Positions 32,368 through 41,388 of a stretch of 64,000 nt of DNA are shown here, in pieces. The notes under the pieces are model-generated. The model was not told the origin of the DNA. It saw nothing but the letters and a program-made list of their open reading frames with translations, and ran no database searches. The translations under genes were made by a program, and so were the position numbers. Within the stretch, counting starts at the first letter, position 1; each line of letters opens with the position of its first letter. This stretch comes from an uncultured Clostridia bacterium (GTDB lineage Bacteria; Bacillota; Clostridia; TANB77; CAG-508): positions 1,087-65,086 of the forward strand of contig CAKOWZ010000011.1 in NCBI GenBank assembly GCA_934129745.1. The letters are read 5' to 3'.

Positions 32368-32450
32368 ATTTTCAGATGTAAATGAAACTTTTAGATTTTA
32401 TATATAAATGAGAATTTCTAAAACATAAAAATACAATTGAAAATTAAAAT

Positions 32451-35446: not shown

Positions 35447-35715
35447 ATTTTGGTGGTAATAAATAAATCAAAAATAATTCATAAAATTTATTTATTCGAC
35501 AAGATTCGACAAAAAATCCGAGAGAAATGTAGTAGAATATACAAAGTAGGAATCACAAAAATAATAAGTACAAAATAATAAATACAAAAATTTGTAATCA
35601 AAACAAAAAAATATAACTAATAAATATTATAATAAAAGGAAAAATAATCCAACCAAATATGTGAATAATTTTAACAATTTTAAACAAATTAATTATAAAG
35701 GAGTGGATGATAAAA

Positions 35716-36248
35716 TGAATGATAAAGATAATGACAAAATAAATGAAAAATCAAAAAAAATAAAATTAATTATAGCAGAAGATAACAAAGAATTTAATAA
35801 TATACTTAAACAGATTCTAGAGTCAAATGACAAAATTGAAGTTATTGGAAGTTGTTATTCAGATGAGCAAGAATTACAAATGATTGAAAAACTTCATCCA
35901 GAAATAGTGATAACAGATTTGGTTAGAAATGGTAAAAAATCAGGTTTAGAAATAATAAAAAAATGTAAAGAAAAATCAAATATTCCAAAATTTTTAGTGA
36001 TAACAGCTGGAGGTGATGATGAAATTGATTGTGATATTATTGATGGATTAATAAAAAAGCCTATTATAAATTATGAAATTATTGTTGACCAATTATTAAT
36101 ACTAAAAAAACAAATAATGCAAGAAACATTGCGTATTTCAAATGATAATGATACGATGGTTCATGTTGGTAATATTTTTAATGATTTTAGTAAAAAATTT
36201 GGGAACAATAAAAAAAGAAAATTTGAAAAGATAATTAAAAATCTATAA
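35716..36248 (+). CDS. stand-alone response-regulator receiver-domain protein (CheY/Spo0F-like) with a short C-terminal extension
   Basis: LIIAEDN...IVITDLVRNG...LIKKP matches the receiver-domain acidic pocket, phospho-Asp and conserved Lys. An AAAGGAG RBS lies upstream. Confidence 0.5.
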
Positions 36249-36413
36249 AGAAAGGTAACGAAGTAAATTTTCGTTTTTTATTTGTTCTATTTAACAACTA
36301 CAAACCACATAAAATAAACAATTGTAGTTGATAATAAAATCAAAAAATAAGTGAGATAATACTAGCAAATGATAAAAATAAATGTTGCTAGTATTGGAGG
36401 AATTAATAGTAAA

Positions 36414-36833
36414 ATGAGTAGAACAGATAGATATGAATATCAAGATTGGGATGGATTTGGTGCAAGAACACGAAACTATAGACTTGCAATAGGACTTACA
36501 AAAGAGACTTTTGCAGATATGATAAATCGTTCTGAAAATTATGTATCAGAATTGGAAAAAGGTAATAGTAGTTGCAGTGTTCATACTTTATACCAGATTT
36601 CACAAGCATTGAAAGTTCCTAGCGATAGTTTGCTTTATGAGGAAAATGAAGCATATATGAAAGATGATTATAGTGATAAGGAGATTTTGAAAAATATTAT
36701 AGATAGATGTAGTGATGAGGAAGTAGCTGTTATTAAAGATTTGATTACAGCAGCATATCCTAATTTGGATAAAATGACTGCTAATAGAAAGATTGGAAAA
36801 GAAAAAAATAAGAATTGTGAAAATAAGAAATAA
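36414..36833 (+). CDS. XRE-family HTH transcriptional regulator
   Basis: The HTH_3-like helix reads LAIGLTKETFADMINRSENYVSELEKG. The start is uncertain. Confidence 0.5.
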   Translation: MSRTDRYEYQDWDGFGARTRNYRLAIGLTKETFADMINRSENYVSELEKGNSSCSVHTLYQISQALKVPSDSLLYEENEAYMKDDYSDKEILKNIIDRCSDEEVAVIKDLITAAYPNLDKMTANRKIGKEKNKNCENKK

Positions 36834-37012: not shown

Positions 37013-38824
<1,812 letters not shown>

Positions 38825-38844
38825 AAAGAAAGGAATGTTTAAAC

Positions 38845-39030
38845 ATGAATGATAATGTTAAATTGGATATTGCAATTGAAATAATGTCAAGTAAGGTTGC
38901 AGATGTAATGGAAGGAAAAAATAAAAAAGAAATAGATAAGATACTTGAAGAAAGGGAACAAATGTATCTTGGAAATTGGGAAGTTATTAATAAAATTCTT
39001 ACTGAATATAGTGAAGATGTAAAAAGGTGA
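38845..39030 (+). CDS. small helical protein directly upstream of two zeta-toxin-like genes, a candidate epsilon-like antitoxin
   Basis: 61 aa, charged and helical in composition, with position and overlap as in a toxin-antitoxin module. No sequence motif was recognised. Confidence 0.3.
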   Translation: MNDNVKLDIAIEIMSSKVADVMEGKNKKEIDKILEEREQMYLGNWEVINKILTEYSEDVKR

Positions 39031-39044
39031 AAGGGAGTAAAAAA

Positions 39045-39911
39045 ATGAATTATGAACAAAGTTTAGAAAAGATTAAAGAAAAATATGTTCTTAATAATGA
39101 ACAATTTCAAGAAATGTATGAAAAATGTAAAAAGATATCTTTTTATAATTGTGAAAAAAGTAATAATCCAGTTGCAGTGTTTACAGGAGGACAAACAGGA
39201 TCAGGAAAAGGTGGAATAGATGTTTTCTCAGGAAGAGAAGTTCATAAAAATGGAGAGCATATGGCTGTTTTAGATGTTGATGTGTACAGAGCAACATTTC
39301 CTTATACAAAAGAAATTTTAAAAAAATATCCTACAATGTATTCAGATATTACAGCTGAAGTTACAGGCAAAATTGTAAATAGGATTATTAATGAAGCAGC
39401 TGAAAATAGATTTAATTTTGTTTTTGAGGGAACATTGAGAAATACTCAACCATTTGAAACATTAAAATCAATGCCTAATGATTACAAAAAAATAATTAGA
39501 GTAATGGCTGTTTCAAATATTGAAAGTTTACTAACAGCATTTGAAAGAAATTATGAACAAATTAAATTAACAGGATATGGAAGATTTACAAATGTTGAAA
39601 CTCACAACAAAACATATAATGGTGTATTGGATAGTGTCAAAAAAATTGAAAAGAATAATGAAAATGTGATTATTGAAATATTTAAAAGAGGAAAAGATAT
39701 GGTTTCTCCAATAAAGATATTTAGTACAAGTGAAAAGTCTAATAAACTTGCAAGTGAGGTATTATCTGAGCAAAGAAACATTGATAAAAATTTATATAAA
39801 GAAGAAAGAGCAAAAAGATTAAAGGTTTTGCTTGAAACTTTAAGTCCAAAGGATGAATTTGAAAAAATACAATTTGAAAAACTGAGGGATGAATTAAATT
39901 TTTTGATTTAA
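39045..39911 (+). CDS. zeta-toxin-like P-loop kinase (AAA_33/Zeta_toxin family)
   Basis: Walker A FTGGQTGSGKGG (zeta/PezT GGQxGxGK) and FEGTLRN motif. Confidence 0.6.
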   Translation: MNYEQSLEKIKEKYVLNNEQFQEMYEKCKKISFYNCEKSNNPVAVFTGGQTGSGKGGIDVFSGREVHKNGEHMAVLDVDVYRATFPYTKEILKKYPTMYSDITAEVTGKIVNRIINEAAENRFNFVFEGTLRNTQPFETLKSMPNDYKKIIRVMAVSNIESLLTAFERNYEQIKLTGYGRFTNVETHNKTYNGVLDSVKKIEKNNENVIIEIFKRGKDMVSPIKIFSTSEKSNKLASEVLSEQRNIDKNLYKEERAKRLKVLLETLSPKDEFEKIQFEKLRDELNFLI

Positions 39912-39927
39912 AAATTATATAAAAGGA

Positions 39928-40923
39928 ATGGAAAAAATGGAATTAGAAGAGGCAATTAAAAAATATAAGATAAATGTTCCTACTGATGAGGAATTTTACA
40001 GTGAAGAATATAGAAAATACTTTGAAGAAAATGTAAAAAATGAAGAATTAAAAATAAAATATGGCAAATATGAAGAATTTCATAAAATGTATATAGAAAG
40101 TTTCTATGTTACATTTTATAGAGCACAAAGAAAGTTTAACTCAAAAAATAAATCTATTGCTAATTCAGAAGCTGTAATATTAGGAGGACAGGTAGGAGCA
40201 GGAAAAGGAGGTTTAGTATCTGTTGCAAAAAGAGAATTTGAAGAGCAGGGAAAAGAGGTTTTTCTGATTGATGATGATCAATATAGGAAATTTTATCCGA
40301 AAGAAAAAAGAAAAGGTATATTAAAAGAGTGTCCAGAATTTTATACTAAAATTACTGCAATTGGAAGTTCAAGTATAACTCCTAAAATTATGAAATATGC
40401 ATCTGATAATGGATTAAATTTTATCTTTGATGGTACAATGAAAAATCCAAGAATTATAGAAACAGCAATGATGTGGAATAATTACAAAATTAATTGGAAA
40501 GTAATGGGAACATCTAAAGTGGAAAGTTTAATTTCTGTGTTTGAAAGAAATGAAATTTTAAGGAAAAGAAAAGATTGTAGATTTATTACAGTTGATGTTC
40601 ATAATGAAACATATTATGGATTAGAAAATACAGTAATGTTGTTGGAAAGTATTTCGAATATTGGAAAAATACAGGTGTATAAAAGAGGTAATAAACCTGA
40701 ATCACCAATAAAAATTTATGATTCTAAAGAAAAAGATCATAAGTATGAAACTGCTGTATCAGCATTAAAGGAAGCAAGGAAACAAGACAAAGAAAGGTGT
40801 ATTAGAGGAGTAAGTTCAAGAATAAAAAAATTAAAAAATTGTAATAAAAATAGAAATGAGGCAGAAAAAGTAGCTTTAGATGAATTAGAAAAAGCAATAC
40901 AGTTAGAAGAACTAGAAAAATAA
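39928..40923 (+). CDS. second zeta-toxin-like P-loop kinase, a tandem paralog
   Basis: Walker A ILGGQVGAGKGG and FDGTMKN. The order of motifs is the same as in the upstream paralog. Confidence 0.6.
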   Translation: MEKMELEEAIKKYKINVPTDEEFYSEEYRKYFEENVKNEELKIKYGKYEEFHKMYIESFYVTFYRAQRKFNSKNKSIANSEAVILGGQVGAGKGGLVSVAKREFEEQGKEVFLIDDDQYRKFYPKEKRKGILKECPEFYTKITAIGSSSITPKIMKYASDNGLNFIFDGTMKNPRIIETAMMWNNYKINWKVMGTSKVESLISVFERNEILRKRKDCRFITVDVHNETYYGLENTVMLLESISNIGKIQVYKRGNKPESPIKIYDSKEKDHKYETAVSALKEARKQDKERCIRGVSSRIKKLKNCNKNRNEAEKVALDELEKAIQLEELEK

Positions 40924-40973: not shown

Positions 40974-41002
40974 ATTGACAAATACAAAATATGGGTGTAA
41001 AT
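40974..41002 (+). promoter_or_regulatory. sigma-A promoter of groESL (TTGACA-N17-TAAATT)
   Basis: Read directly from the sequence. Confidence 0.5.
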
Positions 41003-41004
41003 TA

Positions 41005-41031
41005 TTAGCAGTCTTAAATAAAGACTGCTAA
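41005..41031 (+). promoter_or_regulatory. CIRCE operator (HrcA binding site)
   Basis: TTAGCAGTC-N9-GACTGCTAA compared with the consensus TTAGCACTC-N9-GAGTGCTAA. Confidence 0.85.

Positions 41032-41067: not shown

Positions 41068-41388
<321 letters not shown>

Follow-up and report, generated by a model that had tools for sequence, protein, structure and literature searches.

A putative epsilon/zeta-like module of two anciently duplicated kinases and a new family of small acidic partner proteins in uncultured Clostridia

The stretch of DNA analysed here (the window) comprises 64,000 nucleotides (nt) of contig CAKOWZ010000011.1 from an uncultured Clostridia bacterium. According to the list of its open reading frames (ORFs), three genes lie on the same (+) strand between pyrG and groES: a small gene termed S (38845..39030, 61 residues), a first zeta-type kinase (39045..39911, 288 residues) and a second zeta-type kinase (39937..40923, 328 residues). 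We propose, with confidence that is evenly poised, that this three-gene unit is a kinase-inhibitor module resembling epsilon/zeta, in which S represents a new antitoxin family and the toxin was duplicated long ago, and that it is inherited chromosomally. In such a module S would bind the two kinases and would inhibit them as an antitoxin, and the kinases would be toxic without it. The original prediction, made from the letters of the window, had placed a tandem pair of zeta-toxin-like kinases between pyrG and groESL. Both parts are confirmed, as both ORFs pass the Pfam Zeta_toxin model and the flanking genes encode CTP_synth_N and GATase domains on one side and groES and groEL on the other.

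The kinases match Zeta_toxin (PF06414) with E values of 4.7e-30 and 2e-23, respectively, both above the gathering score of 22.3, and their mutual identity is 35% over 274 residues. No AAA_33 or chloramphenicol-phosphotransferase match to either kinase was reported in the Pfam search. The closest sequences in the PDB are PezT and zeta, the first kinase matching PezT (2p5t) with an E value of 2e-15. The predicted model of a relative in which S and a kinase are fused (P0169) matches zeta and PezT with template modelling (TM) scores of 0.84–0.86, which far exceed those to AvrRxo1, ng_zeta1, adenylate kinases and polynucleotide kinases. Hence, membership of the zeta/PezT family over other kinases, as first suggested, agrees with both sequence and fold, although scores of 68 and 47 bits against the NCBIfam PezT equivalog (cut-off 470) indicate that the kinases are not PezT orthologs. 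The prediction had also allowed for a pair of housekeeping kinases. In the sense of another kinase family this finds no support, since zeta and PezT are the best matches; in the sense of a domesticated kinase of the zeta family it is the main rival to a toxin-antitoxin function.

The catalytic base (Asp67 in zeta, Asp66 in PezT), Arg158 and Arg171 are all retained in the window kinases, and the catalytic residues of the first kinase are kept in 20 of 20 loci that carry the full three-gene arrangement (triads). In zeta, D67 is the catalytic base, T118 and R120 are assigned to the UDP (uridine diphosphate) phosphates and T128 to uracil, and PezT toxicity is abolished by T118V (PMC3062530). The stretch of the first kinase listed with the D67 role lies at 39270..39290 (+). 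T118, R120 and T128 are conserved in the window kinases, which would favour a UDP-sugar rather than NAD as the probable substrate. The exact 288-residue form of the first kinase was found on 40 contigs and the 328-residue form of the second on 26.

S is acidic, with an isoelectric point (pI) of 4.7 compared with 8.7 and 9.1 for the two kinases, and is presumed to be a kinase-binding, antitoxin-like partner. Its AlphaFold model (predicted local distance difference test score, pLDDT, 90.8) is a three-helix bundle with helices at residues 3–23, 27–41 and 45–59, and the face of helix 1 is always acidic (L-[DE]-x-A-x-E). No match to S was found in Pfam, among PDB sequences or with Foldseek. S homologs form 82 clusters (62–100% identity). 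The ratio of nonsynonymous to synonymous substitution (dN/dS) is 0.06–0.15 for S and 0.12–0.25 for the second kinase, and all three genes fall within 0.06–0.25, the range of purifying selection, although these values are rough as dS is ∼1 and near saturation. Because of the homologous clusters and the low dN/dS, S is by its sequence record a real conserved gene and not a chance ORF. A survey of species-representative genomes, with ORFs called in 61 loci, placed an S-family gene directly upstream of a zeta-like kinase in ∼45 loci that span three kinase clades, all in metagenome-assembled genomes of uncultured gut and rumen Clostridia. The small ORF noted at the outset is therefore conserved and always linked to kinases, so that the outcome named there as refuting the idea, a better alignment to non-toxic kinases and a small ORF that is not conserved, did not come about. 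Besides the triad, the arrangements include miaB, S, a 289-residue GKG[AG] kinase and mutS (type B), dyads of S with a canonical kinase of 315–342 residues (type C), and an additional 360-residue kinase with no S directly upstream (type D).

The link between S and the kinases extends to protein fusions in both orders. S is fused to the N terminus of a kinase in P0169 (Paenactinomyces), P0171, P0175-177 (including Shimazuella), P0182 and P0326, and to the C terminus in P0316. The N-terminal fusions occur in at least seven clusters, and the S domain of these chains is ∼80 residues long. The predicted model of P0169 (pLDDT 95.6, predicted TM score 0.92) points to rigid packing of the S domain against the kinase. 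An exhaustive profile search returned a family of 4,120 representatives, with a few extra fusions and the double-kinase proteins; as the profile of 370 positions was dominated by seven full-length fusion rows, its matches are mostly kinases and do not describe the distribution of S alone. Two Zeta_toxin domains lie in a single polypeptide in P0312, P0313, P0319, P0329 and P0432, and the first domain of P0313 and P0432 has a degenerate EGT motif, so that zeta pairs with one degenerate member recur. P0329 additionally has DUF3991 and Toprim_2 domains, a combination typical of conjugative-element proteins.

The pattern of gene loss also bears on function. Wherever the module is broken the broken genes are kinases and never S, pseudogenisation is recurrent (including the frameshifted locus L001), and loss-of-function alleles of the second kinase occur in conspecific strains. 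In the five kinases that lack an S gene immediately before them, the E116-G117-T118 motif is degenerate, with G117V/T118P in three (the 360-residue type) and E116H/G117Q in two (L051 and L052). The rule is not perfectly exclusive, as L044 has the same degenerate motif and yet an S-like gene is present. In L020:2547-5892 and in L042 and L043:4618-6996 a 360-residue zeta-like protein with an intact GKT P-loop and G117V/T118P stands ahead of S, and L020 has two tandem S genes (66 and 60 residues), one of them a dyad-type orphan. Read from sequence comparison, the decay, the degenerate motifs and the selection on the genes would favour a kinase that is harmful if unchecked and a protective partner.

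The cassettes likewise turn over. There are one to three per genome, several of them paralogous within one genome, with differential loss, and the triad occurs in at least six neighbourhoods of the window's sublineage (pyrG/groES, PNP/groES, rpoB, plsX-acpP, suf and U32/VCA0040). Cassette types also replace one another at a single slot, triad and dyad being swapped between genomes that are 86–92% identical in flanking genes. The principal alternative to an inhibited toxin is that the kinases form a domesticated, non-toxic complex with S as a permanent structural or activating subunit, and that this complex would carry out routine phosphorylation of a nucleotide-sugar or related metabolite. We regard this as possible but clearly the less probable of the two, because such birth-and-death is not normal for a core metabolic enzyme. 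The confinement of pseudogenes to the kinases, the orphan S kept in L020, the differential loss and the variety of neighbourhoods count against it in the same way.

The locations of the cassettes, in contrast, are what a domesticated complex would be expected to show, with an activity tied to cell-envelope or tRNA-modification operons. A slot of the form pyrH-frr-(polyprenyl synthase)-uppS-cdsA-[module]-rseP recurs in 25 loci (11 triads and 14 dyads) and a second, miaB-[module]-mutS, in 12, with tiny intergenic gaps in both. The cdsA-rseP slot (L006, L011-L020, L032-L049) is one that we take to be the position of dxr in many Firmicutes (uppS-cdsA-dxr-rasP in B. subtilis). In nine type-B loci (L021, L022, L023, L025, L028-L031 and L033; for example, L021:3976-5574), each from a different genome, MiaB (UPF0004, Radical_SAM and TRAM domains) continues in frame and free of stops into S. 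GGAG lies 5–6 nt before the S ATG in these loci, and the next genes downstream encode a GKG[AG]-type zeta kinase and MutS, in that order. In L024, miaB and S overlap at ATGA and are not fused.

The P-loops further divide the two interpretations. In the window, the first kinase has the P-loop GGQTGSGKGG (39186-39215, +) and the motif FEGTLRN (39423-39443, +), and the second has GGQVGAGKGG (40183-40212, +) and FDGTMKN (40426-40446); a further listed stretch of the second kinase lies at 40562..40573 (+). The motifs quoted for a zeta/PezT-type Walker A and an FEGT(L/M)RN-like element are thus present, but the P-loops depart from the strict zeta/PezT form, as both read GK-G-G without the Walker-A hydroxyl residue where zeta and PezT read GK-T. 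Across the triads the P-loop of the second kinase is GKS/T in 17 of 20, with GKGG confined to the window, L062 and L063 (and the frameshifted L001). The same hydroxyl-less type is found in kinases of the miaB-linked clade and in the S fusions, neither of which has an adjoining second kinase. The P-loop is GK[GA] in each of the seven strong fusions with S at the N terminus, compared with ∼9% of their relatives, and among the listed homologs of P0169 it reads GKS in 100 of 120. This association is consistent with GKGG as an adaptation to an obligate complex with S, in which S or water might supply the function of the lost hydroxyl. Against a domesticated complex, canonical GKS/T kinases are also paired with S in the type C dyads. 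Adenylate kinases function with GKG-T P-loops although no protein residue ligates Mg directly, and therefore loss of the hydroxyl alone is no proof of inactivity. At position 8 of S, all 38 GK[GA] pairs have Asp, whereas 19 of the 21 GK[ST] pairs that could be aligned have Glu; this covariation with the P-loop is given little weight, because a single clade accounts for all the Glu cases.

A bolder and still less likely version of the non-toxic alternative is that S and the GK[GA]G zeta kinases are the two or three subunits of constitutive kinases of a new class, encoded in core operons, and not toxin-antitoxin systems. Were this unlikely proposal correct, the operons concerned would be uppS-cdsA/rseP, miaB/mutS and pyrG/groES of small-genome gut Clostridia. 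Also improbable, though part of the same idea, is that an obligate S would offset the missing Mg-binding hydroxyl and physically couple the kinase to partners such as MiaB.

Several observations weigh against a kinase-inhibitor module of the epsilon/zeta type, and we set them together here. The canonical Walker A motif, G-x4-G-K-[ST], is absent from both window kinases, and neither the UDP-sugar contact E100 of zeta nor the nearby T121 is conserved in them. S equals the kinases in conservation and exceeds them at long range, the opposite of the pattern described in a PezAT review, in which the toxin is normally the better-conserved partner; this conservation is shared with what is expected of a structural subunit. 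Sequence, profile and fold searches detected no homology of S to Epsilon (PF08998) or to the PezA C-terminal domain. No DNA-binding domain or regulator is encoded in the module, neither helix-turn-helix (HTH) as in PezA nor ribbon-helix-helix as in Omega. It also has no promoter or operator space of its own in the window, the gap to the preceding gene being only 20 nt, both behind pyrG here and behind cdsA in relatives. Because of this gap, which contains no terminator, the three module genes are probably co-transcribed with pyrG. The MiaB-S fusions are hard to square with a proteolytically labile antitoxin. Taken together, vertical inheritance, embedding in operons without a promoter, the conservation of S, MiaB-S and the hydroxyl-less P-loops resemble a domesticated complex.

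Mobility points the same way. The module co-diverges with the flanking housekeeping genes, as expected for vertical inheritance. No match to S was found in the 72,556 plasmids of PLSDB, where the kinases have only proteobacterial matches of 25–37% identity, and the module was not found in 50,697 phages or in IMG/VR. This consistent absence from mobile elements is in keeping with domestication. Hence, the description as an epsilon/zeta-like toxin-antitoxin system holds in part: several comparative signatures fit, but no similarity of S to Epsilon or PezA was detected, there is no regulator and the genes were not found on mobile elements. The idea of a duplicated toxin is likewise qualified, since there are two related kinases but their duplication is ancient and co-inherited, not recent.

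The original prediction had further raised abortive infection, in which phage infection would free the kinases from S. We consider an anti-phage or defence role of this kind highly improbable. The PADLOC-DB defence models gave no meaningful match to the module, nothing else supports the suggestion and the inheritance is vertical. Housekeeping genes are the neighbours at every locus examined, and recombinases occur only beside L035-L037. In these loci (for example, L035:5440-10054) a gene for a PBP2-type transpeptidase precedes an S-kinase dyad, and genes for large serine recombinases come after it, the sole neighbourhood seen that hints at a mobile element.

Within the window, a putative ribosome-binding site (GAAAGGAA, 38828-38835) precedes S, and S is separated from the first kinase by 14 nt (0–22 nt in relatives). 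No terminator was found within the module, and the promoter scan was uninformative, with 32 promoter-like sites against 31.7 expected. The mechanical ORF of pyrG opens at a TTG (37067-38824), but the conserved N terminus of CTP synthase starts from the ATG at 37226, giving a gene from 37226 to 38824, and relatives (L068-70) were called at 532 residues. Downstream of the module and outside it, a promoter-like TTGACA-17-TAAATT followed by an inverted repeat (TTAGCAGTC-N9-GACTGCTAA) marks the boundary (40975..41031, +). The element lies 75 nt upstream of groES (Cpn10, 41107-41388), which is followed by groEL. The repeat resembles a CIRCE (controlling inverted repeat of chaperone expression)/HrcA site, of consensus TTAGCACTC-N9-GAGTGCTAA, which suggests that groESL is under HrcA-type heat-shock control separate from the kinase module. 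Upstream of pyrG lie genes for a receiver-domain-only protein (Response_reg, 195 residues; 35661-36248) and for an XRE-family HTH_3 protein (154 residues; 36369-36833). The latter is PezA-like in size and was considered as a PezA-like component, but it was rejected as pyrG intervenes and the gene is missing from the other neighbourhoods of the module. A search of the whole window with Rfam returned nothing at gathering score (no tRNA, rRNA or riboswitch, and no T-box before valS at 32437).

Of the characterized systems, epsilon/zeta of Streptococcus pyogenes pSM19035 shares the kinase Pfam family and fold with the window kinases, as well as the catalytic Asp and both Arg residues; of its contacts to UDP-N-acetylglucosamine, T118, R120 and T128 are conserved here and E100 is not. 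In both cases a small acidic three-helix partner is encoded upstream and the operon has three genes, although here co-transcription is presumed. The omega-epsilon-zeta operon, however, consists of regulator, antitoxin and toxin, whereas the present unit has a partner and two kinases with no Omega-like repressor. Epsilon has 90 residues compared with 61 in S, the zeta P-loop is GKT rather than GKGG, and the pSM19035 system is on a plasmid. PezAT of Streptococcus pneumoniae is chromosomal like the module described here, and the toxin-binding part of PezA is also a three-helix bundle; unlike S, PezA has an N-terminal HTH repressor domain, and PezAT has one toxin rather than two kinases. In EzeT of Escherichia coli, residues 1–82 are an antitoxin that acts in cis and in trans (PMC4803016). 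The layout of an N-terminal antitoxin domain and a kinase is matched by the N-terminal S-kinase fusions, which are likened to EzeT by layout alone and have P-loops without the hydroxyl. EzeT is a single chain, unlike the separate S gene of the window, and the fused form occurs only in distant relatives.

More distant systems provide precedents of a different kind. The ng_epsilon1/ng_zeta1 pair of Neisseria gonorrhoeae shows that zeta-family kinases can have antitoxins unrelated to Epsilon and that their substrate and regiochemistry can vary (UDP-N-acetylmuramic acid, 4′-OH). However, ng_zeta1 has a rewired topology and an oligonucleotide/oligosaccharide-binding (OB) domain, with a TM score of only ∼0.3 to the P0169 model, and its antitoxin is not a helical bundle but an extended polypeptide. 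AvrRxo1-Arc1, a zeta-like NAD kinase with an inhibitor, is a distant same-fold kinase with a small protein inhibitor (4z8v was matched by the P0169 model), but the match is much weaker (TM 0.43–0.48, 12% identity). By these comparisons the kinases are members of Zeta_toxin, and the module lies outside epsilon/zeta and PezAT as these are defined by their antitoxins.

To our knowledge, zeta/PezT kinases are the only toxins of toxin-antitoxin systems that poison the supply of peptidoglycan precursors. We found no description of the module in the literature and nothing relevant on paired zeta kinases or on a defence role for them. In a 2023 RefSeq-wide survey, most PezT/Zeta homologs had no recognised antitoxin or experimental data, and its nine clusters of upstream genes include no mention of an S-like family or of paired kinases. 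S may represent a new family of kinase partners, a link backed by conserved neighbourhoods and by fusions in both orders. The kinases themselves form a natural series in which the Walker-A hydroxyl is present in some members and missing from others. Should the kinases prove toxic, peptides derived from S, or the interfaces between S and the kinases, might be worth considering as tools directed at cell-wall synthesis. If they are instead constitutive enzymes, a 'toxin' fold would be regulating cell-envelope precursor or tRNA-modification metabolism as a matter of routine. The long-term vertical retention of such modules inside core operons of reduced gut genomes bears on an old question, namely whether toxin-antitoxin modules on chromosomes persist as selfish passengers or through recruitment into host physiology.
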